Of a stretch of 32,000 nt of DNA, positions 6,387 to 31,998 are shown in pieces. The position numbers were made by a program, and so were the translations under genes. This DNA is from Nonlabens ponticola (GTDB lineage Bacteria; Bacteroidota; Bacteroidia; Flavobacteriales; Flavobacteriaceae). How positions within the stretch are numbered: the stretch's first letter is position 1; each line of letters begins with the position of its first letter. The notes below the pieces were generated by a model. It had not been told where the DNA came from. It worked only from the letters and a program-made list of their open reading frames with translations, and made no database searches. Location: positions 1,620,001-1,652,000 of the forward strand of contig NZ_CP034549.1 of NCBI RefSeq assembly GCF_003966335.1, written 5' to 3'.

Positions 6387-6457
6387 TAAAGCTGCCGTAC
6401 CAGATAGGATAAGAGTTATGAATTTACGTCTAGAAAGTTTTGACTTGATAATTTTAG

Positions 6458-12293: not shown

Positions 12294-12859
12294 TACTCGT
12301 TCTCGTTAAACCATTTATCTTTTAAGCATTCCATCAGCTGCACTCTAGCGCGGTGCAATATTACCCATAAATTTGACGGCGTCACATCATGTTCCTTACA
12401 GATAGTTTCTGTATCAATATTGTCAATAGACTTTTTCACAAAAATGGTAGCGTATCGTTCAGGTAGGTTTTGAATACAAGCGTTGAGTGCATCACCTAGC
12501 TCTTGCTGTTCAATCTCATCCTCGATGGTAGGATTGCGCATATCCTGTACACGTTCTTCCAGCCAGTCGCCCTCTTGATCTGATGTCTCCAGGTAGCTTA
12601 CCCGCACTTCGGCGCGACCTTTTTTTGAATTTTGCTTGCGGTATTGATCAATAATCTTGCGTTTGAGAATTGAGACCAGCCATGTGCGCTCAGTACTATT
12701 TCCCTCAAAACGATGCGCACTTTTAAGTCCTGCGAGAAAAGTTTCTGAAACTATATCCTGCGCCAATGCCGAGTCATTCACTCGAGTAATGGTGTAATTG
12801 AATAGGTAGTCGCCGTAGCGATCTACCCATTTGTTAGGATCTAGTTTTACTTCTGGCAT
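12293..12859 (-). CDS. RNA polymerase ECF-type sigma-70 factor
   Basis: 188 aa. It has region-2-like (DIVSETFLAGL...ERTWLVSILKRKIIDQYRK) and region-4-like (TICKEHDVTPSNLWVILHRARVQL) segments. Confidence 0.9.
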   Translation of the reverse strand: MPEVKLDPNKWVDRYGDYLFNYTITRVNDSALAQDIVSETFLAGLKSAHRFEGNSTERTWLVSILKRKIIDQYRKQNSKKGRAEVRVSYLETSDQEGDWLEERVQDMRNPTIEDEIEQQELGDALNACIQNLPERYATIFVKKSIDNIDTETICKEHDVTPSNLWVILHRARVQLMECLKDKWFNENE

Positions 12860-15725: not shown

Positions 15726-15844
15726 AGAGTAAAAGTATGAAATATGAAAAGTATAAGCAGGTGTGATCCATAGTTTTGACAGGATTAACATAGCCGCAAC
15801 AGTACATGGTATGGTTGTGGATTAATTTTAGAAAAAATAGAACA

Positions 15845-16372
15845 ATGATCAAGCAATTTATAGCAGCTGCAATCCTGGTAAGTGCCGTTTCCTGTAAGTC
15901 TAACGCACAGGAAGGCAATGAAACTGCCATGGCAGACGACCAGCGAAAAGAATATGAAATCACTAAAACGGAGCAAGAATGGCAAAAGCAACTCACCGCC
16001 GAGGAATTCAATGTACTGCGCGAGGCAGGAACTGAGCGACCGTTCACAAGTCCGCTGAATGATGAGACGAGTCCAGGAACACTGGTTTGTGCAGCTTGCA
16101 AGGCGCCTGTTTATGACAACAAACACAAATTCAAGTCAGGAACTGGATGGCCTAGTTATGACCGCGCCATCGATGGTCAAGTAGAACGTGATGTAGATTA
16201 TAAAATTGGCTATGCTCGTACGGAGCTCAAATGCGCGACTTGTGGTAGTCATTTGGGTCACGAGTTTGACGACGGACCAAGAGATACAACGGGTAAGCGT
16301 CACTGTATAAATGGTGTGGCACTGGATTTTGTGCCAGAAGGACAGGAACTGCCACCATTGAATAGAGATTAA
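15845..16372 (+). CDS. msrB: peptide-methionine (R)-S-oxide reductase MsrB, exported lipoprotein form
   Basis: Zinc CxxC pairs (CAAC, CATC) and the catalytic RHCING. The signal with lipobox (AILVSAVSC) starts at ATG 15845. The resolving-Cys position reads GTGWPS. Confidence 0.85.
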   Translation: MIKQFIAAAILVSAVSCKSNAQEGNETAMADDQRKEYEITKTEQEWQKQLTAEEFNVLREAGTERPFTSPLNDETSPGTLVCAACKAPVYDNKHKFKSGTGWPSYDRAIDGQVERDVDYKIGYARTELKCATCGSHLGHEFDDGPRDTTGKRHCINGVALDFVPEGQELPPLNRD

Positions 16373-16415: not shown

Positions 16416-16790
16416 ATGACAGAAGAAGAATTCAAGAGTAAACTCACGCCAGAACAGTATCATATCCTTAGAGAAAAAGGCACTGAGCGACCATTTACAG
16501 GTGAGTATAACACACATTATGAAGATGGCGTGTATAGCTGTGCTGCTTGCGGTAACGAGCTCTACAAATCTGAAGCAAAATTTGACAGTGGTTGCGGCTG
16601 GCCATCCTTTGACGATGAGATTGAAGGTGCTATCGAGCGCAAACGCGATGCCACACACGGCATGATACGCACCGAGATTTTATGTGCCAATTGCGGTAGC
16701 CATTTGGGTCACGTATTCAATGATGGACCTACCAACACAGGCATCAGACACTGTGTAAATAGTTTGAGTCTTGACTTTGAGAAGAAGTAG
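16416..16790 (+). CDS. msrB: peptide-methionine (R)-S-oxide reductase MsrB, cytoplasmic form
   Basis: 124 aa with no signal peptide. It has CAAC and CANC zinc pairs, the resolving Cys in GCGWPSF, and the catalytic RHCVNS. Confidence 0.92.
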   Translation: MTEEEFKSKLTPEQYHILREKGTERPFTGEYNTHYEDGVYSCAACGNELYKSEAKFDSGCGWPSFDDEIEGAIERKRDATHGMIRTEILCANCGSHLGHVFNDGPTNTGIRHCVNSLSLDFEKK

Positions 16791-18991: not shown

Positions 18992-20884
18992 ATGTCACAA
19001 CAAGGAAAAATTAATGTTGCTGTAGAGAACATCTTCCCATTAATCAAGAAGTTCCTGTATAGCGATCACGAGATTTTTTTAAGAGAATTGATATCCAATG
19101 CGACCGATGCTACACTAAAATTGAAGCACCTAGCCAGCATAGGCGAGGCGAGTGTAGAGTTGGGCGACCAGCAAATTGAAGTGAAGATCGATAAGGACGG
19201 CAAGAAGCTGCATATTATTGATCAAGGTATAGGTATGACCGAGGATGAGGTGCAGAAGTACATCAATGAGGTGGCCTTTTCTGGAGCTGAGGAATTTCTA
19301 GAGAAATATAAAGATACGGCTAGCGATAGTGGTATTATTGGTCACTTTGGTCTTGGGTTTTATAGTGCCTTTATGGTGGCTGATAAGGTTGAGATCATGA
19401 CCAAATCATATAAGGACGAGCCAGCAGTGCACTGGAGCTGTGATGGATCACCTAACTATACGATCGAGGCGGCAGATAAGAAAGACTTTGGTACCGAGAT
19501 CATTTTGCACATCTCTGACGATGAGCAAGAGTTTCTAGAAGAAAGCCGCATACGTGAGCTATTGGTCAAGTACAATAAGTTCATGCCAGTGCCTATCAAA
19601 TTTGGTACGAAGACTATCACGCTAGACAAGCCAGAAGACGCCAAAGAAGATGATCCAGCACCGACTGAAGAAGTCGATAATATCATCAATAATCCTAATC
19701 CAGCATGGACCAAGCAGCCTAGCGAGCTAGAAGACAAGGATTATAAGGAGTTTTATATAGAGTTGTACCCAATGCAATTTGAGGAGCCTCTCTTTAATAT
19801 TCACCTGAATGTAGATTATCCATTCAACTTGACGGGTATCCTGTATTTCCCAAAAATGACACAGGACCTAAACGTGCAAAAGGATCGCATCCAGCTGTAT
19901 CAAAATCAAGTGTTTGTAACGGATAATGTGGAAGGAATCGTACCAGAATTCCTGACTATGCTGCGTGGAGTCATCGACAGTCCAGATATACCACTGAATG
20001 TTTCTCGTTCTTATCTGCAAGCTGATGGTGCTGTTAAGAAAATATCCAGCTACATCACCCGTAAAGTAGCAGATAAGCTCAAGTCCTTATTCAACGAAGA
20101 CCGCAAGGCTTTTGAAGAAAAGTGGAACGATATCAAGATCGTCATCGAGTACGGTATGTTGAGTGAGGAGAAATTCTTTGAGAAGAGCGATGCCTTTGCA
20201 TTATATCCTACGGTCGATGGTACTTATTACACCTGGAGTGAGTTGATGGACAAGATCAAACCTACTCAAACTGATAAGGATGATAAGACGGTCATATTAT
20301 ATGCATCTAACAAGGACGAGCAGCACAGCTACTTGAAAGCTGCTAAAGACAAAGGTTATGAAGTTTTATTGTTAGACTCGCCGATCGTGAGCCACTTGAT
20401 GCAAAAGCTAGAAACCTCTAAAGAGAAAGTAAGCTTTGCCCGTGTGGATGCAGATCATGTAGATAATTTGATTAAGAAAGAAGAAGATCAAATATCAAAG
20501 TTGTCTGATGACGAGAAGGAAGAATTGAAAACCAGTATCACAGAAGCTATAGACAACAGCAACTTCACTGTTCAAGTAGAACCTATGAGCAGTGATGCAG
20601 CGCCATTCATCATCACACAACCAGAGTTCATGCGTCGCATGAAAGAGATGCAGGCAACTGGTGGCGGTGGCGGCATGATGGGCTTTGGTAACATGCCAGA
20701 CATGTACAATCTTGTAGTCAATGCAAACCATGAGTTGGTTCAAGAGATATTTAGTACTAAAACGAAGAAGAAAAAGGATCGATTGATCCAGCAATCTTTT
20801 GATTTGGCCAGGTTATCCCAAGGACTTTTAAAAGGTGAAGCGTTGACTCAATTTGTCAACAGAAGTTATGAGTTGATCAAGTAG
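18992..20884 (+). CDS. htpG: molecular chaperone HtpG (Hsp90)
   Basis: 630 aa. GHKL ATPase motifs ELISNATDA and GHFGLGFYSAF. The length is typical of bacterial HtpG. Confidence 0.95.
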   Translation: MSQQGKINVAVENIFPLIKKFLYSDHEIFLRELISNATDATLKLKHLASIGEASVELGDQQIEVKIDKDGKKLHIIDQGIGMTEDEVQKYINEVAFSGAEEFLEKYKDTASDSGIIGHFGLGFYSAFMVADKVEIMTKSYKDEPAVHWSCDGSPNYTIEAADKKDFGTEIILHISDDEQEFLEESRIRELLVKYNKFMPVPIKFGTKTITLDKPEDAKEDDPAPTEEVDNIINNPNPAWTKQPSELEDKDYKEFYIELYPMQFEEPLFNIHLNVDYPFNLTGILYFPKMTQDLNVQKDRIQLYQNQVFVTDNVEGIVPEFLTMLRGVIDSPDIPLNVSRSYLQADGAVKKISSYITRKVADKLKSLFNEDRKAFEEKWNDIKIVIEYGMLSEEKFFEKSDAFALYPTVDGTYYTWSELMDKIKPTQTDKDDKTVILYASNKDEQHSYLKAAKDKGYEVLLLDSPIVSHLMQKLETSKEKVSFARVDADHVDNLIKKEEDQISKLSDDEKEELKTSITEAIDNSNFTVQVEPMSSDAAPFIITQPEFMRRMKEMQATGGGGGMMGFGNMPDMYNLVVNANHELVQEIFSTKTKKKKDRLIQQSFDLARLSQGLLKGEALTQFVNRSYELIK

Positions 20885-20904
20885 ATAAACTATATATTTT
20901 GATT

Positions 20905-20931
20905 AAAAGCTCCTATACGGGAGCTTTTTTT
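20905..20931 (+). terminator. rho-independent terminator of htpG
   Basis: aaaAGCTCCtatacgGGAGCTttttttt. A 6-bp GC-rich stem is followed by a T7 run, 20 nt after the stop. Confidence 0.8.
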
Positions 20932-21389
20932 ATGCTCTAAATCTAAAGCCTGAAGTTTCTTAAAATTATGTTTACTTTTTTATGGTAATTACTTCAACAA
21001 AAATTCCTTTTAAGATTCACATTTGCTAATTGCAGTTGTAGGAAATATTGTCAAACATTGTATTTCAACGTGTTAACAAAGATTTAACATATTCTTCTAA
21101 TCCATTGATTTTGCAGATAAAATTTTATGTAAAAATTAGTCAAAAGCAATTATTCGATAAACGGTATTAGGAATATAGGTAGGAAGTAATGCTATATTTG
21201 ACATGTCTGATTTGTAGTTGAGATCATGCCCCTTTTGATCTTAAAAATTAGCCAATGGTTATCCCCAAACTGTTGAAAGTGAAATTCCCTTGTTGAAATG
21301 GACTTGTGTCCCTGTAAATGTTGAATTAGATGCGTAAGATCTAATTTGATAGCTCATAATGTGTATTTATTAATTCTAAATATTTAATT
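20932..21389 (+). promoter_or_regulatory. 458-bp AT-rich non-coding leader / regulatory region of the curli-like locus
   Basis: No credible ORF. Direct repeats TGTTGAAA (21271-21278), TGTTGAAA (21291-21298) and TGTTGAAT (21319-21326) are present. Inverted GTTGAA copies lie at 20993-20999 and 21063-21069. One Bacteroidetes-type -7 box candidate, TATATTTG (TAnnTTTG), is at 21193-21200, but I see no convincing -33 TTG. Confidence 0.45.
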
Positions 21390-22703
21390 ATGAAAAGAGT
21401 AATTCTTTGTGCTTCGGCACTACTGGCAGGCGGCTTTGCGATGGCACAGCAACCAGCACCACAGACTGTTCCCACAAGAACAGCTCAAACTATCGCACCA
21501 CGCGTGGTCACCATACCTACTGCAGGTGCAAGCGCAGGAAGCAACTATTCTGACATCGATCAGGCCGGTATAGGTAGTGATGCCACTGTGAAACAACAAG
21601 GTACAGCACAGGGCTCCTTTATTTCTCAAGTAGGAAGCGACAATGCCAATCGTAATGATGTTGTTGTAAGACAATGGGGTAATGTAACTGCTCTTAGTGG
21701 TGAAGGAAACTATGGAGAAGTTGATCAAAATGGTGCAGGTAATACATTTTACGGTACCCAAGAAGGTGACTTTAACCAGATGTTCTCTACTCAAGTAGGT
21801 CTAGACAATGATGTATACGTACAACAAGGTGATGACACTGCTGAGCAGGCTGAAGGGAATTTAGCAATAGTCGATCAGGATGGATCAATCAACGTAGCCT
21901 CTGTTGAGCAACGTTTTGATAACAATCAGTCATCAATCACTCAAAGAAATAGTGTTGGCGCGATCAGTGGTAACGTTTCCTACCAAGATCAGGTAGCTAA
22001 TCCAAATCAGTCTGCGGGTCATGTAGCAATAGGTGAGCAATGGGGTGAAGGTAATGAATTGGCGCAATTTCAGGTAGGGCCTGGTGACGGTAACTATGCT
22101 GAGGCCTTACAAGGTAATGCAACAGATGCTGCTCAAGGAGGATTTGTGCAACAAGTTCAAACTGGTTCATTAAATGAAGCTTACGCAACTCAAATAGGAG
22201 TAGATAACACATTGTATCAAGAACAAGACGGTAGCGGCAACACAGCACAAGCTATTCAGGCTGATAATCCTGCAAGTGGTAATGATATGGTTGCTATGCA
22301 ATATCAAAGTGGAGATGATCACAGTGCCTATGTAAAGCAAAATGGTTCTTTGAATGAGGCATATCAAGAACAATTTGGTGAAGGCAACATTTCTAACATT
22401 GAGCAAAGAGGTGGCGTGAATCCACTAGAAGCAAATCTAGCAACTACTTTACAAAGTGGAGCGTTGAACCAATCTGATATACTTCAAAAAACAAGAGGTA
22501 ACGTATCATTTGTTGACCAATTAGGGAATGGTCACCAATCAATAATTAACCAAAATGCTAACGGAACATCAGCTCCAGGAGCACAAGGATTCAATACTGC
22601 AACTGTTTCTCAACGTAATGCAAACGTTTCTTTCTCGCCAGCTCAATCTCGCACTTTTGTAGGAACGCCAGCTGCTCAAAGAGTACGTAACAATAACAAC
22701 TAA
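21390..22703 (+). CDS. giant curlin-repeat protein, paralog 1 (CsgA-like functional amyloid subunit)
   Basis: 437 aa with a signal peptide (MKRVILCASALLAGGFAMAQ). The mature part is Q/N/G/A/D-rich and Cys-free. It is built from many Q-x-G-x-x-N-x-(A/F)-x3-Q modules, e.g. VDQNGAGNTFYGTQEGDFNQMFSTQVGLDNDVYVQQG. Confidence 0.8.
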   Translation: MKRVILCASALLAGGFAMAQQPAPQTVPTRTAQTIAPRVVTIPTAGASAGSNYSDIDQAGIGSDATVKQQGTAQGSFISQVGSDNANRNDVVVRQWGNVTALSGEGNYGEVDQNGAGNTFYGTQEGDFNQMFSTQVGLDNDVYVQQGDDTAEQAEGNLAIVDQDGSINVASVEQRFDNNQSSITQRNSVGAISGNVSYQDQVANPNQSAGHVAIGEQWGEGNELAQFQVGPGDGNYAEALQGNATDAAQGGFVQQVQTGSLNEAYATQIGVDNTLYQEQDGSGNTAQAIQADNPASGNDMVAMQYQSGDDHSAYVKQNGSLNEAYQEQFGEGNISNIEQRGGVNPLEANLATTLQSGALNQSDILQKTRGNVSFVDQLGNGHQSIINQNANGTSAPGAQGFNTATVSQRNANVSFSPAQSRTFVGTPAAQRVRNNNN

Positions 22704-22711
22704 AACATTTT

Positions 22712-22741
22712 ATCCAGGTGAGGTTTTTATCTCATCTGGAT
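22712..22741 (+). terminator. intercistronic stem-loop after curlin 1 (possible partial terminator / mRNA stabiliser)
   Basis: ATCCAGGTGAG-gtttttat-CTCATCTGGAT. The 11-bp stem has one G-U pair and is followed by a weak T-tract (tcttt). Confidence 0.5.
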
Positions 22742-22757
22742 CTTTAAAACACACATT

Positions 22758-24026
22758 ATGAAACATTTAATTATAACTGCTTCAGCTCTATTGGTAGGAT
22801 CGATAGCTGCAGCACAATCGCAACAACCTATAGTGGCACCTGTTGCACAGACAATTTCAACTGCGAGCGCTGCGCAAGGTGGCAACTCTTCTAAGGTTGA
22901 TCAATCAGGTATAGGTAGTGATGCTGTTGTGGCACAACAAGGTACCGCAAACGGTTCATTCATTGCTCAGGCAGGTACTGACAATGGAAATCGCAACGTG
23001 GCTGACGTACTACAACATGGTAATGTACAGCCTAGCATTAGCGGTCACTTAAACTACTCAGACATCGCACAGGTAGGAGCTGGAAATGAGTTTATGGTGA
23101 CTCAACAAGGTGATCTAAACCAGATGTTTGGTACTCAAGATGGTGTTGATAATGCCGCACTGGTACAACAAGGCGCTGATGGACCGCAGCAAGCTGAAGG
23201 TAATTTAGCTTTAGTAGATCAGTCAGGTCTAGGCAATGATGCGGAAGTACAGCAGCGTTGGGATAACAATCAGTCAAGCATTTTACAAAGTAATGATGCG
23301 GTTGCGGGTGTAGGTAACAAATCATTCCAAAGTCAAAAAGCTAATCCTAACCAGTCTGCAGGACACCGTGCAATAGGTGAGCAGTATGGTGATGGTAATC
23401 AATTGGTCCAAATTCAAGAAGGTCCAGGTTCTGGAAACTACGCGCAATCTAATCAAGGTAATGCAACAACTGCAGCAACAACTGCTTTTGCACAGCAGGT
23501 ACAGTCTGGTGAAGGAAATGAAGCATACAATACCCAATTTGGTGTGAATGATGAATCTTTCCAGGAGCAAGTTGGGTCTGACAACCTTGCAGAAGTAAAG
23601 CAAAATACACTTCCTACTATTGGTGCAGATAACTATGCGGCACAGTTCCAGGATGGATCTGATAATGAAGCTCGTGCTGATCAAAACGGATTTAATCAAG
23701 ATGCTTTTCAAGAGCAGTACGGAACTAATAATGTCTCTACAATCAAACAACGCGCTGGACAAGTTGCTGGTAATCTAGCTCTTTCTATTCAAAGAGGAGA
23801 TGCTAATATATCTGCAATTACTCAAAACCTTGATGGAAATAGTGCTATGGTAGATCAGTTAGGAGATGGCCATCACAGTGTGGTAAATCAAAATGCCTCT
23901 CAAAATGCATCTGCGAGACCTAATGCTGGCTTCAATACGGCAACCGTAACTCAAAGAAATGCAAACGTTTCATTGACTCGTGCGACTCAAAGAGCAGCAG
24001 CTGTCAAGAGACACTTCAACAATTAA
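22758..24026 (+). CDS. giant curlin-repeat protein, paralog 2
   Basis: 422 aa with a signal peptide. It shares conserved blocks with paralogs 1 and 3 (GIGSDA.V.QQGTA.GSFI.Q; ANPNQSAGH.AIGEQ.G.GN.L.Q.Q.GPG.GNYA; GFNTATVTQRNANVS). Confidence 0.8.
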   Translation: MKHLIITASALLVGSIAAAQSQQPIVAPVAQTISTASAAQGGNSSKVDQSGIGSDAVVAQQGTANGSFIAQAGTDNGNRNVADVLQHGNVQPSISGHLNYSDIAQVGAGNEFMVTQQGDLNQMFGTQDGVDNAALVQQGADGPQQAEGNLALVDQSGLGNDAEVQQRWDNNQSSILQSNDAVAGVGNKSFQSQKANPNQSAGHRAIGEQYGDGNQLVQIQEGPGSGNYAQSNQGNATTAATTAFAQQVQSGEGNEAYNTQFGVNDESFQEQVGSDNLAEVKQNTLPTIGADNYAAQFQDGSDNEARADQNGFNQDAFQEQYGTNNVSTIKQRAGQVAGNLALSIQRGDANISAITQNLDGNSAMVDQLGDGHHSVVNQNASQNASARPNAGFNTATVTQRNANVSLTRATQRAAAVKRHFNN

Positions 24027-24037
24027 TCAACCTTTTT

Positions 24038-24063
24038 TAATCCACCAGTGAACACTGGTGGAT
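24038..24063 (+). terminator. intercistronic stem-loop after curlin 2
   Basis: AATCCACCAGTG-aa-CACTGGTGGATT is a perfect 12-bp inverted repeat. Realistically this is a 10-bp stem with a 6-nt loop. An A/T-rich tail follows. Confidence 0.55.
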
Positions 24064-24085
24064 TATTAATATTAAAAAACGAATT

Positions 24086-25360
24086 ATGAAGTACACAATA
24101 ATAACGGCTGCTATCCTTTTAGGTGGATCAGTAGCTATGGCTCAAGGTCCGGTACGTAAAGCGGTAACCACGCCAGTTGTAAAGACAAATCCTAAGGCAG
24201 GTGCTACTGTAGGTAGCAACTACTCTGAAATTGATCAGGTTGGAATAGGTAGTGATGCCTTTGTAGAACAACAAGGAACTGCAAATGGATCATTCATCCT
24301 ACAAACAGGAGCTGCTAAAATGAACCGCAACTCGGTTGATTTACGTCAATGGGGTAATGTAACTGCCGCAAGTGGTGAGGCAAATTATTCATCAGCTATT
24401 CAAGATGGCTCTGGAAATAGTCTTGTTGCAGATCAATCTGGTGATGCAAACAGTCTATTCAGTACACAAGTAGGTCTTGATAACGAGGCAATTCTTGCGC
24501 AAGGAAGCATGACTGCTCAAAAGGCAGAAAATAACATATCTGTCATCGATCAAGACGGTAAGGATAACTTTGCCACCGTTTTTCAAGGATTTGATGATAA
24601 TGAAGCATCTATCCTTCAAAGAAATGATCAAGTGACTGGTGTTGGTAATCGCGCTTTTCAAGATCAGCGCTCTAATCCTAATGGTAGTGCTCTCGCTAAT
24701 ACCGCGATAGGTACTCAGTATGGTGACGGCAACGACCTTGTACAAATTCAAAGTGGTCCTGGAAACGATAATTATGCTGAGGCCAATCAAGGTGATGCAG
24801 CAACAGCTGCTTCTGGAGCATTTGTACAACAAGTACAAACTGGAGACGGTAACGAGGCATTTGCTGATCAATTCTTGACTGGTGATACGGCCTTCCAAAC
24901 GCAATCAGGTTCTGACAACGTTGCTGTGGCGAGACAAAATACCGCTGGTGTATCAACTGGAGGAAATAATTTGACCGATCAATGGCAAGAAGGAGAAAAC
25001 AACAGAGCTACCTCTAATCAATTTGGAAACAACAACAGTTCTTTCCAGGAGCAGTACGGTGAGCGTAATAGTTCTGTAACTACTCAGGCGATGGGTCAAG
25101 ATGCAGGAAATCTAGCAAATAGCATTCAATCTGGGATCAGAAATATTTCTCGTATTGATCAAGGAGCACATGGTAATGTATCATTTGTTGACCAGACAGG
25201 TGATAGACAACACAGTATCATAAAGCAAAATCGTCCAGGTATTGGTGGTACGGTAGCAGAAGGTTACAACACTGCAACTGTTACACAACGCAACGCAAAT
25301 GTTGCTTTGACTGCTCAAACTCAAAGAGCAGCAACAATCAAGCGTCGTTTTGATGACTAA
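24086..25360 (+). CDS. giant curlin-repeat protein, paralog 3
   Basis: 424 aa with a signal peptide, the same module architecture, and the conserved C-terminal block YNTATVTQRNANVALTAQTQRAATIKRRFDD. Confidence 0.8.
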   Translation: MKYTIITAAILLGGSVAMAQGPVRKAVTTPVVKTNPKAGATVGSNYSEIDQVGIGSDAFVEQQGTANGSFILQTGAAKMNRNSVDLRQWGNVTAASGEANYSSAIQDGSGNSLVADQSGDANSLFSTQVGLDNEAILAQGSMTAQKAENNISVIDQDGKDNFATVFQGFDDNEASILQRNDQVTGVGNRAFQDQRSNPNGSALANTAIGTQYGDGNDLVQIQSGPGNDNYAEANQGDAATAASGAFVQQVQTGDGNEAFADQFLTGDTAFQTQSGSDNVAVARQNTAGVSTGGNNLTDQWQEGENNRATSNQFGNNNSSFQEQYGERNSSVTTQAMGQDAGNLANSIQSGIRNISRIDQGAHGNVSFVDQTGDRQHSIIKQNRPGIGGTVAEGYNTATVTQRNANVALTAQTQRAATIKRRFDD

Positions 25361-25374
25361 TTAATTTAATAAAT

Positions 25375-25411
25375 AATGTTGGGATGTGAAGTAGGGTAGC
25401 ATCCCAACATT
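25375..25411 (+). terminator. intercistronic stem-loop after curlin 3 (terminator-like)
   Basis: AATGTTGGGATG-(13 nt loop)-CATCCCAACATT is a perfect 12-bp stem followed by ttataatt. Confidence 0.6.
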
Positions 25412-25426
25412 TTATAATTGAAGCTT

Positions 25427-25933
25427 ATGAAATGGTATCTGATTTTAGTTTTATTCTTTTCCAGTTTTCTTGCAGTTGCTCAGACTTATAAAGAAGACAA
25501 GAAAGTCGTGAATTCAAACTCTTTAGAAACATCTAATGAGCAACTCAATTTTATTTCAAACAATCAAGCTAATGCCTCTAACAATCCTGTTACTAGAGGT
25601 AATTCTGTGTTTATTGAACAGGCAGGTTTTGGTAATCAGGCATCTGTTACGGCAGCGTCTGATAATAGCGAAATCAATCTATTCCAATCTGGAAATTTTA
25701 ATCAAAGTTTTATAAAGCTTAATGCTACATCTATTAGAGAGAATGTATTGCAAAGGGGAAATAGCAATTTATTCATTGATTATAGTGTGCATGGAGCAAG
25801 AACACATAATGTTGATTTAATTCAAGACGGTAGTTACAATACGGTAATAAGTGCTGGTAGAAATAGCATTTCTGAAAGATTGCAAATCAATCAAACTGGT
25901 AACGGTGCTGCGGCATTTGTAATTCATTTTTAG
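25427..25933 (+). CDS. small five-repeat curlin (CsgB/CsgA-sized; candidate nucleator)
   Basis: About 168 aa from ATG 25427 (MKWYLILVLFFSSFLAVAQ). There are about five 22-aa units (GNSVFIEQAGFGNQASVTAAS / DNSEINLFQSGNFNQSFIKLNAT / ...LQINQTGNGAAAFVIHF). Its stop lies 1 nt before the next ATG. Confidence 0.7.
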   Translation: MKWYLILVLFFSSFLAVAQTYKEDKKVVNSNSLETSNEQLNFISNNQANASNNPVTRGNSVFIEQAGFGNQASVTAASDNSEINLFQSGNFNQSFIKLNATSIRENVLQRGNSNLFIDYSVHGARTHNVDLIQDGSYNTVISAGRNSISERLQINQTGNGAAAFVIHF

Positions 25934-25934
25934 A

Positions 25935-26666
25935 ATGGCTAGAATCATTTTATTCTTATTAATGATCCCATGTTCAATGGTGCATGCTCAAGAAAGTTTT
26001 TACAATAGGGAAGTAAAGGCTGTTATTGAATTAGAGGATAAGGAAGGATTTGTAAACATTACCGGTATAGCAACTAATCTTACAAGTGCTGATCAGGGAA
26101 TCAGGTATGAACTCGCAGTGATAAGAAAAGATACCGCAAGTGGTAACAGTACTAAAAATAAGCAAACAGGAAGAACAGTTCTCAAGGCTAGTGATAAGGT
26201 ACTGTTGTCAAAAACAAGTGTCAATCTCAATATACCAGATTTGATAACGATCATGTTGTTAATATATGATGTTGATGATAAGTTACTAGGCAAGGAGATT
26301 AAAAGAATAGAACCCAATACTCGAGAAATCGCGGTAGTCCAATCAACAGCGTATGATGGTATAGAATTTAAAGGTATCGTGCTCAAAAAATTGCGCACTG
26401 CGCCTGCTCGCAAATTCTATGACTATTTCTATGAGAAATATAGGTTTTACAATATCAACGGTAGTGAAATCGTGACCATCAAAGAAGTATTTGGTCAAGG
26501 TAGAACTTCTAAGGTAGAAGTACTGGTAGGTAGAGATCTCGTATTTGAATTTTTTCTGAATCCTACTGAAAAGTATATAGAACAAATGGGCGATAATGCC
26601 ATCTACAAAGTGTATAACAAATTTGAATCACTCAAGGCGCAAGAAGCCGCCATTAAAAATTATTAA
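25935..26666 (+). CDS. csgE: CsgE-like curli secretion specificity factor with an N-terminal CsgC/CsgH-like extra domain
   Basis: 243 aa with a signal peptide. The C-terminal ~100 aa align by eye to E. coli CsgE (ARKFYDYFYEKY vs GHDFYRAFSDKW; IVTIKEVFGQGRTSKVEVLVGRDLVFEFFLNP vs [31 protein letters not shown]). The N-terminal ~105 aa resemble CsgC (see finding). Confidence 0.7.
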   Translation: MARIILFLLMIPCSMVHAQESFYNREVKAVIELEDKEGFVNITGIATNLTSADQGIRYELAVIRKDTASGNSTKNKQTGRTVLKASDKVLLSKTSVNLNIPDLITIMLLIYDVDDKLLGKEIKRIEPNTREIAVVQSTAYDGIEFKGIVLKKLRTAPARKFYDYFYEKYRFYNINGSEIVTIKEVFGQGRTSKVEVLVGRDLVFEFFLNPTEKYIEQMGDNAIYKVYNKFESLKAQEAAIKNY

Positions 26667-26668
26667 TA

Positions 26669-27094
26669 ATGCTCAACAAAATTACAACACCGCTCACGTT
26701 GTTAATTTTACTTTGCCTTGCGGCAACAAGTAACGCTCAACAACTTGTTTATAAACCTATCAATCCAGCCTTTGGCGGTGATACGTTTAATTATCAGTGG
26801 CTTATTCAAAGTGCTGAACAACAAAATAAATTCACAGATCCCGCGCAACGTGGACTCAACGATCCACAATCAGAGCTTGATAGCTTTGCAGACGGACTTA
26901 ACCGACAAATCTTAAGTCAATTATCCAGATCATTAATCAATGCTCAAATTGATCTTAATGATGGGTTAGAACCAGGAACTTTCAGTTTTGGTAGTCTAGA
27001 GGTAGAAGTTCTAGAGTCGTTAGATGGACTTGTGGTAAACATTCTCGATACTAACACAGGAGACACCACTCAAGTAGTTATACCTACAAATTAA
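26669..27094 (+). CDS. csgF: curli assembly component CsgF
   Basis: 141 aa with a signal peptide. The mature N-terminus QQLVYKPINPAFGGDTFNYQWLIQSAEQQNKF matches the E. coli CsgF signature [26 protein letters not shown]. Confidence 0.85.
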   Translation: MLNKITTPLTLLILLCLAATSNAQQLVYKPINPAFGGDTFNYQWLIQSAEQQNKFTDPAQRGLNDPQSELDSFADGLNRQILSQLSRSLINAQIDLNDGLEPGTFSFGSLEVEVLESLDGLVVNILDTNTGDTTQVVIPTN

Positions 27095-27104
27095 AACGGT
27101 GTCC

Positions 27105-28616
27105 ATGAAAAAATCAATCAACCCAATAGGGCTCGTACTCTTGTGCTTACTTTTTTCAAGTTGTGGAGCCTACTTTAATCAGCCACTTGATACTCAAAAT
27201 GCGCGAGTAGGAGAAACTACAGACGCCACGTTGCGTTTGAGAGAATTGCCGCCACCTGTTGCACCAGCGGTTGTAGGCGTATATAAATTTGAGGATCAAA
27301 CAGGACAGTTCAAACAGGCAGAGTCTGGTTCAACCTTTAGCAATGCCGTTACTCAAGGTGGTACTACTATTCTTGTAAAGGCACTAGAAGATTCTAAATG
27401 GTTCACACCGATAGAGCGAGAAAACTTAGGTAATCTTATTAATGAACGCAATATTATTCTTTCAACTCGCAAGGATTTTGCACAAAAGACAAACACCCAG
27501 GTAAAAGACTTGCCACCATTACTTTATGCGGGTGTCTTGATAGAAGGTGGTATCGTTTCTTATGATACTAATGTACTTACCGGTGGTGTCGGCGCGAGAT
27601 ACTTTGGCGCTGGTGGTTCTACAAAATATCGTCAAGATCGAGTTACCGTTTACTTAAGAGTAGTCTCTACTAAGAATGGTGCCATCATGAAAACGGTTTA
27701 TGTTTCTAAATCTATTTACTCACAAGCTGTAGATGCGAGCCTTTTCAGGTACGTGAACTTCAAACGATTACTAGAGGCAGAAACCGGTTTCACGCGCAAC
27801 GAGCCAGGACAATTAGCTGTAAAAGAAGCTATTGAAAAGGCCGTAGAAGCTCTTATAGTAGAAGGTATCAGCGCAGATTTATGGTATCCAGCAGGTGGCG
27901 AGCCAGTCGCTAATAAGATGATTGCTGACTACCGTCAGGAAAAAGAAGTGGCAGAGCGTACTGACGTTTATCAACGCGATCTTCTTGATCGACGCAGTCG
28001 CTGGAGACTGGATATAGGTGCTGGTGGAACCTATGCTAACAACGATTTACCTGACCCATACTATGAATATTCTATCACGGGTGGGTTGAAATATAATTTC
28101 TCACCACATCTGGGAATTTATGGTAGTATTAATAGATATCGATTGAAGAATACTGATTTATTCAATAGAGAATTTAGCAGTAGTGATCTCAATCTAGAGT
28201 TGACCGTGTTACCGTTTGAAAAATTCACTCCTTATGCCTATGGTGGCGCTGGACTCAATTATGCTAATTCTTTACAAGTAGTGGATTTTAAAGCTCAAGC
28301 AGGCCTAGGCTTTGAATACATGGCCACGCCAGCTATCGGGCTCAAGGTTTATGGAGAGTACAATGTCGTATTTTCTGATGAACTGGAAAACCTCGTTGCA
28401 GGACAGCAGGATGATCACTATTACAAATTTGGCGCTGGTATCAATATATACATTGGTGGTAGCAAGGCAAAGGATAATTCCGCGCGCTATCAACGTCGCA
28501 GGGCAGCTCGAGATGCAAGAAGAAAGAGTCGTCTAGAACCGCCCATTGATAGTAGTAATGATACTACGATTCCGCTTTCGCGAAAGCAAAATAATAACAC
28601 ATCTCAACAACTTTAA
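27105..28616 (+). CDS. csgG: curli secretion channel lipoprotein CsgG fused to a C-terminal 8-strand OMP beta-barrel-like domain and basic tail
   Basis: Lipobox LLFSSC. Residues ~50-265 align closely to E. coli CsgG (VYKFEDQTGQFK, WFTPIERENLGNLINERNII, GGVGARYFGAGGSTKYRQDRVTVYLRVVS, FTRNEPGQLAVKEAIEKAV). Residues ~301-454 form 8 alternating amphipathic strands. The tail is RYQRRRAARDARRKSR. I prefer ATG at 27105 over GTG at 27099. Confidence 0.9.
   Translation: MKKSINPIGLVLLCLLFSSCGAYFNQPLDTQNARVGETTDATLRLRELPPPVAPAVVGVYKFEDQTGQFKQAESGSTFSNAVTQGGTTILVKALEDSKWFTPIERENLGNLINERNIILSTRKDFAQKTNTQVKDLPPLLYAGVLIEGGIVSYDTNVLTGGVGARYFGAGGSTKYRQDRVTVYLRVVSTKNGAIMKTVYVSKSIYSQAVDASLFRYVNFKRLLEAETGFTRNEPGQLAVKEAIEKAVEALIVEGISADLWYPAGGEPVANKMIADYRQEKEVAERTDVYQRDLLDRRSRWRLDIGAGGTYANNDLPDPYYEYSITGGLKYNFSPHLGIYGSINRYRLKNTDLFNREFSSSDLNLELTVLPFEKFTPYAYGGAGLNYANSLQVVDFKAQAGLGFEYMATPAIGLKVYGEYNVVFSDELENLVAGQQDDHYYKFGAGINIYIGGSKAKDNSARYQRRRAARDARRKSRLEPPIDSSNDTTIPLSRKQNNNTSQQL
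28574..28587. repeat. palindrome core GCTTTCGCGAAAGC inside the csgG 3' tail (encodes P-LSRK-Q)
   Basis: Read directly. It lies 27 nt before the csgG stop and 32 nt before the next ATG. Confidence 0.9.
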
Positions 28617-28618
28617 TC

Positions 28619-30088
28619 ATGAGAGCAAAAATCATATTTATTGTATCGATCCTAGTATTGGCTATTTCCTGTACGGAAGATACCGTTGAGGTCAACGGCA
28701 AGGGAACTGTAACAGGTAGAGTAGTGGCCGATGAAAGTTTTGAGCCACTAGCAAATGTCAAAATATCGACCAACCCAAATACGAGCACTACATTTACTGA
28801 TGCAGATGGACAGTTCTCACTAGAAATTGAGAATGGCACCTATGCCGTAAAAGCAGAGAAAGATGGATTTCTAGTGGACTTTGAAAGTGCCGATGTAGAG
28901 ACAGATGAGGAAACGACTCTCGTGTTTGAGTTAAAAGTAAGCACGGCAAATAATCAACCGCCTAGCGCACCAGAACTAATTTTTCCTGAGGATGAAGCGG
29001 TAGAAATACCCTTCAACTTTACGCTAGAATGGGAGTCTCTTGATGTAGATCAAGACAGCCTTACTTACACGGTTACCTTGAGGAATGCGAGCGATAACAG
29101 TGTTAGAACTTTTGAAGATATTGAGGAAGATGAGCTTGAGGTGACCGTTGAGTACGGCACTACCTATTTCTGGCAAGTGACGGTTAATGATGGTATCAAC
29201 GATCCAGTAAATAGCTCTTTAAACAGCTTTACTACTCAATCAATACCTGCTAATCGATTCTTGTACGTGCGTAAAGATGATGACAATAATGTCATTTACA
29301 GTGCAGATCGTGATGGCAACGAGATTGCCCTTACGGACGAGTCGCGCAATAGTTGGCGCCCACGAGTCAATAAGCAAGTAGGGCGCATTGCTTTCTTGCG
29401 CAGTGTAGGTAGTAATACACAGCTTTTTACCATGAATTTAAACGGCAATGATGTACGACAGGTGAGTAGCAGTGTTCCCGTACGTGGTTTTAATCTGGAT
29501 GAGATTGATATAGCTTGGGCAAACAATGGTTCGGCTATATATTATCCATCACAAAATCGACTTTACCGCATCAACACCAATGGTAGTGGCTTGACTCAAG
29601 TTTATCAAACGGTTAATGGCAATCTTATTAGTGAAGTTGATTATAATAATGGCGTCATAGCTTTAAAAACCAATGATCTAGATGGGTATAATGTTGAGAT
29701 ATTTACCATTAATGAGAGTGGTACGAGACTCAATACTGTTTTGACAGGAATCGATGGCGCTGCTGGTGGTCTTGATTTGAGCATCGATAATACACGCCTG
29801 TTATATAGCCGTGATGTGTCTGGGTTTGAAAGTAGTGATTACCGCAGATTAGACAGTCGCGTTTTTATACATCAGTTTAATAATCAATCAAACACTGAAA
29901 TCTCCTTTAATAAACCTGGTGGTACTAATGATCTAGATCCTAGATTCTCACCTACTGATGCTCAAGTGATTGTTACCAATCGAGATAATGATGATACAGG
30001 CGTTGGTACAATTGATATACTAGAGTTGGGTCAGGTTGATCCACGTAATAACACCTTTGAAAATGCATTTATGCCAGATTGGGAATAG
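28619..30088 (+). CDS. lipoprotein with CarboxypepD_reg-like, Ig/FN3-like and TolB-like (PD40) beta-propeller regions
   Basis: 489 aa with lipobox LAISC. Residues 26-106 read GKGTVTGRVVADESFEPLANVKIS...TDADGQFSLEIENGTYAVKAEKDGF (carboxypeptidase-regulatory-like fold). Residues ~112-206 form an Ig-like module (TYTVTL...TYFWQVTVNDG). The C-terminal part has repeated IYSADRDGNEIALTD / RIAFLRS..NTQLFTMNLNGND motifs, as in TolB/PD40 propellers. Its ATG is 2 nt after the csgG stop. Confidence 0.7.
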   Translation: MRAKIIFIVSILVLAISCTEDTVEVNGKGTVTGRVVADESFEPLANVKISTNPNTSTTFTDADGQFSLEIENGTYAVKAEKDGFLVDFESADVETDEETTLVFELKVSTANNQPPSAPELIFPEDEAVEIPFNFTLEWESLDVDQDSLTYTVTLRNASDNSVRTFEDIEEDELEVTVEYGTTYFWQVTVNDGINDPVNSSLNSFTTQSIPANRFLYVRKDDDNNVIYSADRDGNEIALTDESRNSWRPRVNKQVGRIAFLRSVGSNTQLFTMNLNGNDVRQVSSSVPVRGFNLDEIDIAWANNGSAIYYPSQNRLYRINTNGSGLTQVYQTVNGNLISEVDYNNGVIALKTNDLDGYNVEIFTINESGTRLNTVLTGIDGAAGGLDLSIDNTRLLYSRDVSGFESSDYRRLDSRVFIHQFNNQSNTEISFNKPGGTNDLDPRFSPTDAQVIVTNRDNDDTGVGTIDILELGQVDPRNNTFENAFMPDWE

Positions 30089-30107
30089 CATCCTTTTATC
30101 TATAAAT

Positions 30108-30127
30108 GGGATGCGTATCCCGTTTTT
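30108..30127 (+). terminator. candidate terminator of the curli-like operon
   Basis: GGGATgcgtATCCCgttttt. The stem is short (5 bp) but GC-rich, with a T5 run, 20 nt after the stop. Confidence 0.45.
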
Positions 30128-30226
30128 AAGTCTTGAATCTCTGAGCAAGGTTCAACGGGCTAGATAACTGAATATGATACTTACGCAACATCAATATTTA
30201 TGATGCTGTTCCTTCTGCATAAAATT

Positions 30227-30270
30227 GAAAAAGCCTAGCTGGATCTTAGGGAATCCGACTAGGCTTTTAT
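30227..30270. terminator. bidirectional terminator-like hairpin between convergent genes
   Basis: aaaaAGCCTAGctGGAT-cttaggga-ATCCgaCTAGGCTtttat. An 8+4 bp stem is flanked by an A-run and a T-run, so it is usable on both strands. Confidence 0.6.
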
Positions 30271-30456
30271 TCTAAATATTAGTCAAATATAACACCCAAA
30301 AGCAAGAAACAGCGATTAAAGTATGTATTTACCAAAAATTTTGCTTTTAGTCGGTTAATCGATGGTTTCCAAATAAGCTTTAAGCTTTAATGTAGCAGGT
30401 CTATTAGGCTACTTTGCTATAGTTGACCAATTATAGAGATAGCAAGGATTTGGTAA

Positions 30457-31998
30457 TTAGTCCTCTTCAAAAGTTACGCTCTCATAAGCGCCAGCATCTG
30501 GTGAGCCAGCATCGCGAGCCGCTTGAGTTATATCTAGAGACGCCACGGTCGCTGGATTTCCTAGTCCATTTGCCGCACTTTCATTGCTTATCTGCAATTC
30601 ATTGCGAGCAGCGTTCTTGAAGAATGGTTCCTCATTGAGAATGACCTGCTCGTATAAATCTGTATTACTAAAATCATAAACAGAAATATCTTCCAACTCG
30701 CCAAATCGATCCTCAAACTTGATCAATGAGTTTTCAAATTTGAAATTTAGGTCACTCACCTCGTCATCAAGTATCAACAGTTCTAAATCTCTATCGCCAT
30801 AGATGATGCAGTTGGTGAAAACCGCATTCTCCAAGGGTTCGCTCAATCCACTATTAGGAATTGTATTAGAAATGAATAACGCTGGATCCTGGCGTAGACC
30901 ATTTGGGAAAAAGTTTGCGATCGTACAATTATTGAAGTTGTATTCACCACCTAACCGCAATACTACCGATGATTGACCAGAGTTATTGATCACAAGATTC
31001 TCCGCATCAATACTAGCTGTAGATGCAAGTATGCCGTTATTAGCGCTATTATAAATTTGCGTGTTATCTATGCGTAATGTAGCTCCATCATCGTCATCGC
31101 TCTGACTATCCATGATAATCCCAACACTCGAGTTGCGTATGGTAAGGTGTGAGATTTCATGATCTTTGCTACCTGCCGTAAGCCAGATGGCAGTCCATTG
31201 TCCAGGTAGGTCATTAAATGCAGGCTCTAGCCTGTCGCCTTGAAAGATCACCTCATTTTCTAATGCTTCGGTTAGGCTAGGAGCACCATTTACTTTAAGT
31301 GTTGATTCATTTGAGGCGATAATACCGCTGCCATCATGAAAAAATAATCTAGCGCCAGCTTCAATAGTTAGCGTTTGATCATTGGGTATGGCAGCAAATC
31401 CATAAATCACATATGGTTTTTCATTAGTAAAGGTGAGTTCATCCTCGTCTAGAACAAATCCTCTTATACGTATTTCATTCTCATCTTGGTCAACGCCTAA
31501 TAACAAGGATTCCTCAATGCCTTCATCATCTCGCTCTGGGAAAAGAAAAATTGCATCCTTAATCAAGGTCACTAATTCTACAGATTGGAAATCACCTGAA
31601 CTACCAAAATCGATCGTATCCAGATAAAGGAACTCATCATCATCGGTCTGTGTATTAATATCGACAGTGGTTTCAATAAAGACAAATAGGGAATCGTTTG
31701 CCAGTAATTCTACATTTTCAAAAACTCTACCAGGCACTCCATCAACAGCAAGTCGATACAGCGATTCATCACCTTGTCTTAATCGTACCTGTGGTATGAG
31801 AATATCCTCATCGCTGCGATTATAAACCTTTACGGTTCTCGTACTGCTACCTATATTGGTAAATACCGTGTCCAGAAAAACAGTGTCCTGTGAGAATTCT
31901 AGCGCGCCGACACTTTCAGTAAATTCAAAATCGTTGCGACAAGAAGCCAACAGAATAATTACAGTACCTAATAATATGGAGTACGCTATGTTTTTCAT
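30457..31998 (-). CDS. lipoprotein with right-handed parallel beta-helix repeats
   Basis: 513 aa with lipobox LLASC. An N-terminal Ig-like region is followed by repeated N-x-(S/T)-hydrophobic turns (IRNSSVGIIMDS, IYNSANNGILAS, INNSGQSSVVL, FNNCTIANF, FTNCIIYGD), as in pectate-lyase-fold proteins. The function is unknown. Confidence 0.6.
   Translation of the reverse strand: MKNIAYSILLGTVIILLASCRNDFEFTESVGALEFSQDTVFLDTVFTNIGSSTRTVKVYNRSDEDILIPQVRLRQGDESLYRLAVDGVPGRVFENVELLANDSLFVFIETTVDINTQTDDDEFLYLDTIDFGSSGDFQSVELVTLIKDAIFLFPERDDEGIEESLLLGVDQDENEIRIRGFVLDEDELTFTNEKPYVIYGFAAIPNDQTLTIEAGARLFFHDGSGIIASNESTLKVNGAPSLTEALENEVIFQGDRLEPAFNDLPGQWTAIWLTAGSKDHEISHLTIRNSSVGIIMDSQSDDDDGATLRIDNTQIYNSANNGILASTASIDAENLVINNSGQSSVVLRLGGEYNFNNCTIANFFPNGLRQDPALFISNTIPNSGLSEPLENAVFTNCIIYGDRDLELLILDDEVSDLNFKFENSLIKFEDRFGELEDISVYDFSNTDLYEQVILNEEPFFKNAARNELQISNESAANGLGNPATVASLDITQAARDAGSPDAGAYESVTFEED

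Follow-up and report, generated by a model that had tools for sequence, protein, structure and literature searches.

A run of eight contiguous genes on a single strand of the Nonlabens ponticola chromosome very likely encodes a working curli-type (type VIII secretion) functional-amyloid system, vertically inherited with the chromosome, as judged from sequence. The locus lies in a stretch of 32,000 nucleotides (nt) of contig NZ_CP034549.1 (assembly GCF_003966335.1, positions 1,620,001 to 1,652,000 of the forward strand), hereafter the window, to which all coordinates refer. The csg locus occupies 21390-30088 of the + strand, and every one of its eight products begins with a Sec or lipoprotein signal peptide. 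The sequence features that define curli and type VIII secretion are all present, namely curlin repeats, CsgG, CsgF, CsgE and their clustering, and the Pfam gathering cut-offs were exceeded by Curlin_rpt (in A1-A3 and B), CsgE, CsgF, CsgG and, in the eighth protein, CarboxypepD_reg. The two marks of the enterobacterial regulon, csgD and divergent operons, were not found in the window open reading frames (ORFs) scanned. NCBI labels of the CsgE family and the CsgG/HfaB family were already attached to the genes. The initial annotation of this DNA, made from its letters and ORFs alone, had proposed eight co-directional genes (three large curlins, a small curlin, CsgE, CsgF, CsgG and a lipoprotein); all of these ORFs are present on the + strand, and the CsgE, CsgF and CsgG domains that it expected from profile hidden Markov model (HMM) searches were recovered above the Pfam cut-offs. 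The features of the locus, with protein lengths in amino acids (aa), are as follows.

20929-21389 (+): non-coding leader and presumed promoter region, 5' of A1
21390-22703 (+): A1, curlin, 437 aa
22712-22741 (+): hairpin in the A1/A2 gap; RNAfold -18.7 kcal/mol, z = -5.6 against shuffles
22758-24026 (+): A2, curlin, 422 aa
24038-24065 (+): 12-bp hairpin in the A2/A3 gap, from the terminator scan; RNAfold -18.1 kcal/mol, z = -7.1
24086-25360 (+): A3, curlin, 424 aa
25375-25411 (+): hairpin followed by TTTTAT in the A3/B gap; RNAfold -18.3 kcal/mol, z = -4.9
25418-25933 (+): B, small curlin, 171 aa
25935-26666 (+): E, CsgE protein, 243 aa
26669-27094 (+): F, CsgF protein, 141 aa
27099-28616 (+): G, CsgG protein, 505 aa, or 503 aa if the ATG at 27105 (the start of NCBI's protein) is used
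28619-30088 (+): H, lipoprotein, 489 aa
30104-30127 (+): terminator-like hairpin and T-run 3' of H, from RNAfold of 30089-30200 and direct reading of the sequence

Gaps between the subunit genes measure 54 nt (A1/A2), 59 nt (A2/A3) and 57 nt (A3/B). The remaining gaps measure 1 nt (B/E), 2 nt (E/F), 4 nt (F/G) and 2 nt (G/H), which bears out the tight spacing proposed for the last five genes (1-4 nt throughout, with the F/G gap at 10 nt if the ATG start of G is used). The hairpin after H has a GGGAT/ATCCC stem lengthened by A/T pairs and followed by TTTTT. The interval originally assigned to the locus, 20932-30127, is sound at its end, which is the T-run of this hairpin; its start only marks the end of the htpG terminator (20905-20928), which directly precedes the interval, and the adjoining 20929-21389 is non-coding.

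To place the locus among its relatives, we scanned one genome per species by CsgG alignment, which recovered relatives in at least 595 species, and we inspected the 79 best-scoring loci by searching their ORFs with the domains of the window. About 15 named Flavobacteriaceae genera are represented among these loci: Nonlabens, Mesoflavibacter, Olleya, Aquimarina, Bizionia, Flavobacterium, Gillisia, Lutibacter, Winogradskyella, Salegentibacter, Gilvibacter, Allomuricauda, Polaribacter, Joostella and Mariniflexile. Wherever the contig shows it, all 79 keep the order A (one to four copies)-B-E-F-G-H, in agreement with the synteny that had been predicted. Throughout these loci G carries both of its parts and H all three of its own, and H lies directly 3' of G in every locus with enough contig. 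Outside Nonlabens, median identity to the window proteins is 53% for F, 53% for G, 45% for H, 35% for E, 31% for A and 29% for B. The cluster sits between the same two neighbour genes in 68 of the 79 loci; in Nonlabens the neighbours are instead htpG and a gene for a beta-helix lipoprotein. As read from these genomes, the architecture is family-wide and positionally fixed rather than peculiar to N. ponticola.

These data bear on the idea that the locus is a decaying or silent remnant without a consequential product. Such a remnant would fit the lack of a dedicated regulator in the window ORFs scanned, but it is hard to square with eight intact ORFs that keep their signal peptides, with an order and architecture held across some 15 named genera at 45-53% identity for F, G and H, with subunit paralogues that retain their repeat motifs despite only 51-54% mutual identity, and with conserved intergenic hairpins. 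We therefore give it hardly any weight.

Some individual loci carry features of their own. Judged from their N-terminal sequences, the two fixed neighbours (in locus L005, for example, at 4607-6793 and 13105-14283) are a candidate glutamine-synthetase-III-like gene of about 728 aa upstream and a candidate purM-like gene of about 392 aa downstream. In Flavobacteriaceae bacterium RhTr2 (L009:6635-20105), two complete curli loci stand in tandem, reading A-B-E-F-G-H and then A-A-B-E-F-G and onward. Two metagenome-assembled genomes (MAGs) labelled Acidimicrobiia (L047) and Porticoccaceae (L068) hold typical flavobacterial curli loci with 51-52% identity in G, probably through binning contamination.

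The three large subunits are unmistakable curlin-repeat proteins. Against a cut-off of 20.7 bits, Curlin_rpt scores 58.5 bits in A1, 52.7 in A2, 43.0 in A3 and 23.6 in B, with the matches spread over eight stretches in A1 and seven in A2. The Q-x-G-x-x-N motif builds the amyloid core in CsgA; A1, A2 and A3 contain 13, 12 and 13 canonical xxQxGxxNxxx motifs, respectively, on an 11-residue base period. The three share 51-54% identity with one another, and the signal peptide of A1 ends in AMAQ. Calling these subunits giant, as the initial annotation did, overstates their size: they are about three times as long as E. coli CsgA, and A proteins in related loci range from 205 to 939 aa. Related loci contain one to four A genes, with a single copy in 57 of the 72 loci in which an A gene was detected; among the loci examined, three copies occur only in the window and in a second Nonlabens locus (L004). 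None of the curlins matched a C-terminal-domain model of the type IX secretion system (T9SS) in the NCBIfam scan, which fits export through CsgG.

The fourth curlin, B, is built more like a classical curlin, with four to five repeats of 22-24 residues each, and it matches the NCBIfam CsgA model at E = 2.8e-11. Its start codon is TTG, with an alternative ATG three codons further downstream. In related loci B is single-copy, about 150-200 aa long and always directly 5' of E. From this position and constancy we infer that B is a nucleator-like minor subunit and that A1-A3 are the fibre subunits; Dueholm et al. (PMC3521004) state that CsgA is distinguishable from CsgB in Gammaproteobacteria alone. 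A C-terminal beta-signal in B was also considered and dropped, as a C-terminal Phe occurs in only 22 of 73 orthologues.

The make-up of the subunits leaves some room for a system in which a CsgG-type channel exports curlin-repeat proteins as non-amyloid beta-solenoid surface proteins, such as adhesins or a coat held by H. A1-A3 are long and irregular, their 11-residue period being broken by non-canonical stretches, in contrast to the regular 22-residue repeats of B; CsgG-family channels with other cargo exist, such as HfaB in holdfast anchoring, whose NCBIfam model matches G at E = 2.8e-7; and the system comes with a conserved lipoprotein, predicted to lie at the surface, that has domains of a binding type. 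Nevertheless, Curlin_rpt scores well above its cut-off, the Q-x-G-x-x-N motif is kept 12-13 times in each A protein, and a complete nucleation set (B and CsgF) is conserved together with an amyloid-inhibitor-like domain, a combination that makes sense chiefly if early folding of the cargo is dangerous. We consider non-amyloid cargo improbable and retain the amyloid reading.

The amyloid-inhibitor-like domain is found at the N-terminus of E. This protein comprises a CsgH/CsgC-like domain at about residues 20-128 (nt 25992-26318), a linker (129-145) and a CsgE domain at 146-243 (nt 26370-26663), which matches Pfam CsgE (PF10627) over residues 146-238 with 34.9 bits against a cut-off of 25. The initial annotation had seen that CsgE carries an N-terminal addition, but not that this addition is CsgH/CsgC-like. 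Searched against NCBIfam, whole E matched CsgH at E = 2.7e-6 (residues 30-112) and CsgC at E = 0.004. Across the N-domains of 22 E orthologues, the CsgH model matched 19 (E <= 0.01, best 6.4e-12) and the CsgC model 11, and among 18,950 NCBIfam models these are the only two that recur. An AlphaFold2 model of E, with a mean predicted local distance difference test score (pLDDT) of 80, resolves a seven-strand sandwich (27-125), a disordered linker (131-145) and a beta-alpha-beta3-alpha fold (149-242), the sandwich strands running over 27-36, 39-48, 54-66, 72-83, 88-97, 102-111 and 117-125. Foldseek ranked Rhodopseudomonas palustris CsgH (2n59) first for the modelled N-domain and E. coli CsgC (2xsk) fourth, the latter with a target template modelling (TM) score of 0.77 and a root-mean-square deviation of 2.9 A. 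A profile of the N-domain searched against PDB sequences also gave CsgC as its best match (E = 0.005), over about 47 residues only and insufficient alone.

The fused arrangement is not confined to the window. A profile search of 1.84 billion representative proteins returned 983 matches at E <= 1e-3 and 121 at E <= 1e-30. The 150 best listed matches are mostly full-length proteins of 230-270 aa, indicating that the CsgH-like-CsgE fusion is common, and they also include stand-alone N-parts, stand-alone C-parts and longer forms. The CsgH-like domain is modular in relatives, occurring alone, fused or doubled. The doubled form was seen in the Olleya E orthologues (L006:8372-9559 and L008:8360-9547; protein P0150), which are 395 aa long and place a tandem pair of CsgH-like domains before CsgE.

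How far this resemblance extends to function has to be weighed. The N-domain of the window falls under the curated NCBIfam cut-offs, at 29.3 against 35 bits for CsgH (E = 6.5e-7) and 19 against 75 bits for CsgC. Taylor et al. (PMC4838910) define CsgC-like proteins by a CxC motif and CsgH-like proteins by a distant cysteine pair; cysteines are absent from 20 of the 22 mature N-domains and single in the other two, and neither pattern occurs. Ig-like sandwiches are, moreover, common folds, and many Ig-like domains of the GH2 type score nearly as well in Foldseek. These points, with the short CsgC match in the PDB, would suit a generic Ig-like spacer or oligomerisation domain that resembles CsgC and CsgH by fold alone and lacks chaperone activity, in which case Bacteroidetes would restrain premature aggregation in some other way, for instance through CsgE alone or through gatekeeper residues. 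Set against a generic domain are the exclusive recurrence of the two curli chaperones among all NCBIfam models (19/22 and 11/22), the position of CsgH as top structural match, and the location of the domain right after the curlin genes, the place that csgC takes in csgBAC, together with its occurrence as a stand-alone product in relatives. A generic spacer thus seems to us unlikely, though a more serious contender than non-amyloid cargo. We read the N-domain of E, on profile matches and a predicted fold, as a putative third, disulphide-less branch of the CsgC/CsgH fold, fused to CsgE.

CsgH and CsgC act as periplasmic inhibitors of curlin nucleation (PMC4838910). The csgC gene has been reported missing from Bacteroidetes (Dueholm et al., PMC3521004), and the CsgH-like domain in E may supply the chaperone said to be lacking. 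CsgH-like subfamilies in Bacteroidetes are mentioned by Taylor et al., with no fusion described in the portion available (PMC4838910).

A group of Flavobacterium loci shows an unusual arrangement at the junction of the two parts of E. In 13 of them (L026, L032, L037, L042, L043, L053, L058, L061, L062, L067, L070, L071 and L079; about 9200-9260 of each locus), the CsgE part is read in the -1 frame relative to the CsgH-like part, and the junction is always a genomic run of A10-A12. At this junction the CsgE part lacks both a start codon and a signal peptide of its own. Sister species carry the run lengthened by one base and in frame; in L038, L041, L050 and L076 it is A11, and the flanks are identical in L042 (A10, split) and L038 (A11, fused). 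No such run exists in E of N. ponticola. Two ordinary genes can be rejected as an account of the split form, given the missing start and signal peptide of the CsgE part, the overlap at the A10-A12 run and the fixed -1 frame. One possible cause is transcriptional slippage, which would give a free CsgH-like protein as well as the fusion; another is homopolymer phase variation that switches CsgE on and off. A homopolymer assembly error is less likely, because 13 independent assemblies shift in the same direction.

The two secretion components that follow E are clear homologues of their E. coli counterparts. F matches Pfam CsgF (PF10614) over its full length with 131 bits and aligns to E. coli CsgF (6l7a), with the N-terminal NPxFGG plug retained as INPAFGG against RNPNFGG in E. 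coli. In E. coli, the NPxFGG peptide inserts into the CsgG barrel. G contains a CsgG channel at about residues 22-290, a small outer-membrane protein (OMP) beta-barrel domain at about 299-452 (nt 27993-28454) and a basic low-complexity tail at 453-505. It matches Pfam CsgG (PF03783) with 209.5 bits, and its residues 29-280 align to the solved E. coli CsgG at E = 6e-57. Against the NCBIfam equivalog model for E. coli-type CsgG, G scores 204 bits where the cut-off is 505, and it is therefore a distant CsgG orthologue rather than the enterobacterial equivalog. Its lipobox reads LFSSC; the mature N-terminus, C-G-A-Y-F-N-Q, is free of a lipoprotein export signal motif. The constriction Phe (F56 in E. 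coli) is retained.

The C-terminal domain of G is the second addition to the machinery. Searched alone, residues of about 295-460 match Pfam OMP_b-brl (PF13505) with 29.5 bits against a cut-off of 28.7, compared with 25.3 bits in whole G, and the model matches 22 of 24 G orthologues (best 1.3e-12). A profile of the domain gave only weak matches among PDB sequences (E >= 0.025; designed barrels and OmpW), with no solved relative detectable by sequence. The domain is probably a small outer-membrane beta-barrel, an assignment that rests on sequence scores. The CsgG-barrel fusion is found in all related loci. In E. coli CsgG, the C-terminal helix is periplasmic, so the barrel of G could insert beside the pore, one per protomer. 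Dueholm et al. (PMC3521004) wrote that CsgG size is unaffected by subunit size, and for this reason the extension appears to have gone unremarked so far. The tail that follows the barrel (residues 453-505, window 28455-28613) is a Lys/Arg/Glu-rich, low-complexity segment, and its length in orthologues runs from 0 to about 90 residues.

The eighth protein, H, has three parts: a CarboxypepD_reg-like sandwich (28-105; 41.4 bits in Pfam), an FN3-like sandwich (119-205; PF00041 is on record for homologues) and a TolB-like beta-propeller (214-487). Its AlphaFold2 model (pLDDT 82.7) shows two beta-sandwiches and a propeller of about 24 strands, for which Foldseek retrieved TolB (E about 1e-11, target TM 0.54) as well as YWTD-type propellers. 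H is not an orthologue of TolB: it scores 25.2 bits against the TolB model TIGR02800, whose cut-off is 343, it stands in a curli operon, and it has the propeller fold alone in common with TolB. The lipobox of H is AISC, followed by T-E-D, giving a mature N-terminus of C-T-E-D; most orthologues read C-S-E-(D/E), with E at +3 in 54 of 72 and D or E at +4 in 56 of 72. The lipoprotein export signal of Bacteroidetes consists of a polar residue and two acidic ones, with the consensus SDDFE in F. johnsoniae (PMC5080379). H is accordingly predicted to be surface-exposed, and probably is, in view of this fit of its C-S/T-E-D/E N-terminus. A role in fibre anchoring or organisation, possibly with the extra barrel of G, is speculative. 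With H, all three of the additions to the machinery originally proposed are upheld: the N-terminal seven-strand beta-sandwich of CsgE, the C-terminal domain of CsgG (at the OMP_b-brl cut-off) and the propeller lipoprotein.

Signals that could govern expression lie in the intergenic regions. Of 81 gaps that follow a subunit gene in related loci, 86% contain a hairpin like those of the window (median free energy -21 kcal/mol, z -5.7), and the gaps from B through H have medians of 4-21 nt across these loci. In other fibre operons, hairpins of this type at the major-subunit gene are known to control subunit ratios. By analogy, the hairpins of the csg locus can be read as attenuators or stabilisers that would give a high ratio of subunits to machinery.

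The leader (20929-21389) contains no ORF longer than 44 aa, and an Rfam search of 20800-30500 at E <= 1 gave only a sub-threshold match on the htpG terminator, with no riboswitch or small RNA in the 460-nt leader. Blocks at about 21050-21110 (TTAACA repeats), 21190-21210 and 21360-21389 are kept in the second Nonlabens locus (L004). The repeated TTAACA elements of the first block, GTGTTAACAAAGATTTAACA, could be an operator for some regulator. Inside the second lies a Bacteroidetes -7-like box, TATATTTG, at 21193-21200; we regard it as a candidate promoter element, given that the TAnnTTTG motif occurs across the window at chance frequency (27 sites against 32 expected). A sigma-70 promoter scan (34 sites against 27.5 expected) was set aside as uninformative and of the wrong promoter type for Bacteroidetes.

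The surroundings of the locus are those of an ordinary chromosomal region. The flanking genes are housekeeping genes, including htpG, a methylpurine glycosylase and a DEAD-box helicase, and the downstream neighbour is a convergent gene for a beta-helix lipoprotein, so that both flanks are as originally described. Among the 20 flanking window ORFs scanned (the larger ones), we found no mobile-element gene and no regulator of the LuxR/GerE/CsgD type, consistent with the earlier statements that neither mobile elements nor csgD accompany the locus. An origin by mobile element or horizontal transfer was rejected: GC content is unremarkable, housekeeping genes lie on the flanks scanned, and 68 of the 79 relatives hold the cluster at one chromosomal position. 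Elsewhere in the window, two adjoining genes at 15806-16372 and 16416-16790 (+) each encode a SelR domain (MsrB, methionine sulfoxide reductase B). A gene for a sigma factor of the extracytoplasmic function (ECF) type, with Sigma70_r2 and r4_2 domains, lies at 12293-12859 (-), about 8.5 kb upstream and with no link to the curli locus. Three ORFs of 205-271 aa, at 52-804 (-), 6458-7075 (-) and 11233-12048 (+), matched no Pfam family at E <= 0.001.

Comparison with the curli systems of E. coli and Salmonella shows a shared core and a series of departures. In common are curlin subunits with Q-x-G-x-x-N repeats, a lipoprotein CsgG, a CsgF with the NPxFGG plug, a CsgE domain, a small second curlin and a CsgC-type beta-sandwich encoded directly after the curlin genes. 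However, the enterobacterial genes are split into csgBAC and a divergent csgDEFG, whereas the Nonlabens locus runs in one direction, without a CsgD in the window ORFs scanned; the gene order is A...B rather than B-A; and the single 151-aa CsgA of E. coli is represented by three paralogues of 422-437 aa. The chaperone-like domain is cysteine-free and fused to CsgE, CsgG bears an extra OMP barrel and a basic tail and does not conserve the constriction residues Y51 and N55, and a propeller lipoprotein is added as an eighth gene.

The N-domain of E can be compared with its presumed relatives in the same way. With CsgH of Alphaproteobacteria (R. palustris 2n59) and CsgC of Enterobacteria (2xsk), it shares an Ig-like sandwich of about 100 residues and seven strands, significant HMM similarity and a position adjacent to curlins. 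Unlike them, it is fused to CsgE, occurs twice in Olleya and, in some Flavobacterium, is parted from CsgE by a frameshift at an A-run; it lacks both the CxC motif and the distant cysteine pair, and its scores stay under the curated NCBIfam cut-offs. Likewise, the propeller of H, of about 24 strands, resembles that of TolB from the Tol-Pal system in fold (Foldseek E about 1e-11, target TM 0.54), but H differs in being a lipoprotein, in its two N-terminal beta-sandwiches and export-type motif, and in its place in a curli operon rather than in tol-pal.

Also comparable are the csgBAEFG loci that Alteromonas and Pseudoalteromonas carry as a single operon, together with the Bacteroidetes loci (PMC3521004; PMC12822426), which likewise combine curlin genes and csgEFG in one direction. 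The loci described in these two papers also share many-repeat subunits, the possibility of several CsgA/B paralogues and, in Bacteroidetes, the lack of csgC and csgD. The Nonlabens locus falls within this group of Bacteroidetes curli loci, which genomic surveys had catalogued before (PMC3521004; PMC12822426). Both surveys, that of Dueholm et al. from 2012 (PMC3521004) and one from 2025 (PMC12822426), recorded the presence or absence of Csg HMMs and described Bacteroidetes as being without CsgC; neither reports a CsgH-like domain in CsgE, a CsgG extension of about 230 residues or a conserved downstream lipoprotein. We found no paper on flavobacterial curli machinery in a literature search that left most subscription-journal papers outside its reach. 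In the literature searched, the CsgH-like-CsgE fusion, the CsgG-barrel fusion, the conserved lipoprotein with an export motif and their family-wide constancy are undescribed. The initial annotation had likewise held that Bacteroidetes curli are known from comparative genomics and that this architecture is uncharacterised by experiment, and the two surveys retrieved (PMC3521004; PMC12822426), neither with this machinery, agree with it.

From gene content and domain identities we infer a pathway, amyloid formation included, in whose individual roles our confidence is lower than in the system as a whole. A1-A3 and B would be translocated unfolded across the inner membrane. In the periplasm, the CsgH/CsgC-like sandwich, covalently tethered to CsgE, would prevent nucleation of the subunits, and the CsgE part would cap the CsgG channel and pass subunits to it. 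CsgG would be anchored by its lipid and, in this lineage, also by the small C-terminal outer-membrane barrel. CsgF would plug the CsgG barrel through its NPxFGG N-terminus and display the small curlin B at the surface, where B would template the polymerisation of A1-A3 into fibres. H, probably flipped to the cell surface, may act with the channel and the extra barrel in anchoring or organising the fibres, and the hairpins after the subunit genes would keep the ratio of subunits to machinery high.

Beyond the sub-threshold and cysteine-free character of the N-domain of E and the commonness of its fold, several observations weigh against this picture. Of the three residues that form the constriction in E. 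coli CsgG, two are not conserved in G: Y51 is not kept, and Thr stands in place of N55. The barrel assignment for the C-domain of G derives from a sequence score at the cut-off. The 79 loci were ranked by a query that contained the barrel, and this set cannot show that the barrel and H always co-occur. NCBIfam models place B nearer to CsgA and A1-A3 nearer to CsgB, so the assignment of major and minor subunits follows only from copy number and gene position. Finally, the literature searched yielded no experiment on any flavobacterial curli locus. We nonetheless hold to a functional curli-type system as the most probable reading of the locus.

A more far-reaching and clearly more tentative proposal, which we put forward as a possibility somewhat short of even, is that Flavobacteriaceae possess a distinct branch of type VIII secretion in which four features operate jointly. 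First, a nonameric CsgG pore might be ringed by nine satellite barrels, each subunit contributing one small transmembrane barrel. Second, the cap might be a CsgH-like/CsgE chaperone-adaptor chimera that holds 420-residue subunits too long for a cage of the E. coli type. Third, a surface-exposed propeller lipoprotein might be obligatory for fibre anchoring. Fourth, in a clade of Flavobacterium, slippage or phase variation at the A10-A12 run might adjust how much free chaperone is made relative to fused adaptor, or might switch curli export on and off.

For the controlled assembly of amyloid, curli serve as the reference system, and mechanistic knowledge of them comes almost entirely from E. coli. 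The CsgG channel of type VIII secretion is also used as a nanopore, and the system serves in engineered living materials. Flavobacteriaceae, for their part, are major colonisers of marine particles, algae and fish. The augmented architecture described here is present in all 79 of the best-scoring loci inspected, out of at least 595 species with a CsgG relative. The CsgH-like-CsgE protein would offer a natural chaperone-adaptor fusion for studying how subunits are handed over to the channel, and these ideas are open to direct genetics in models of the Flavobacterium johnsoniae type. Type VIII secretion has two candidate new components in the CsgG-fused barrel and the conserved, probably surface-exposed lipoprotein, and a CsgH-like domain within CsgE would explain the reported lack of CsgC in Bacteroidetes.

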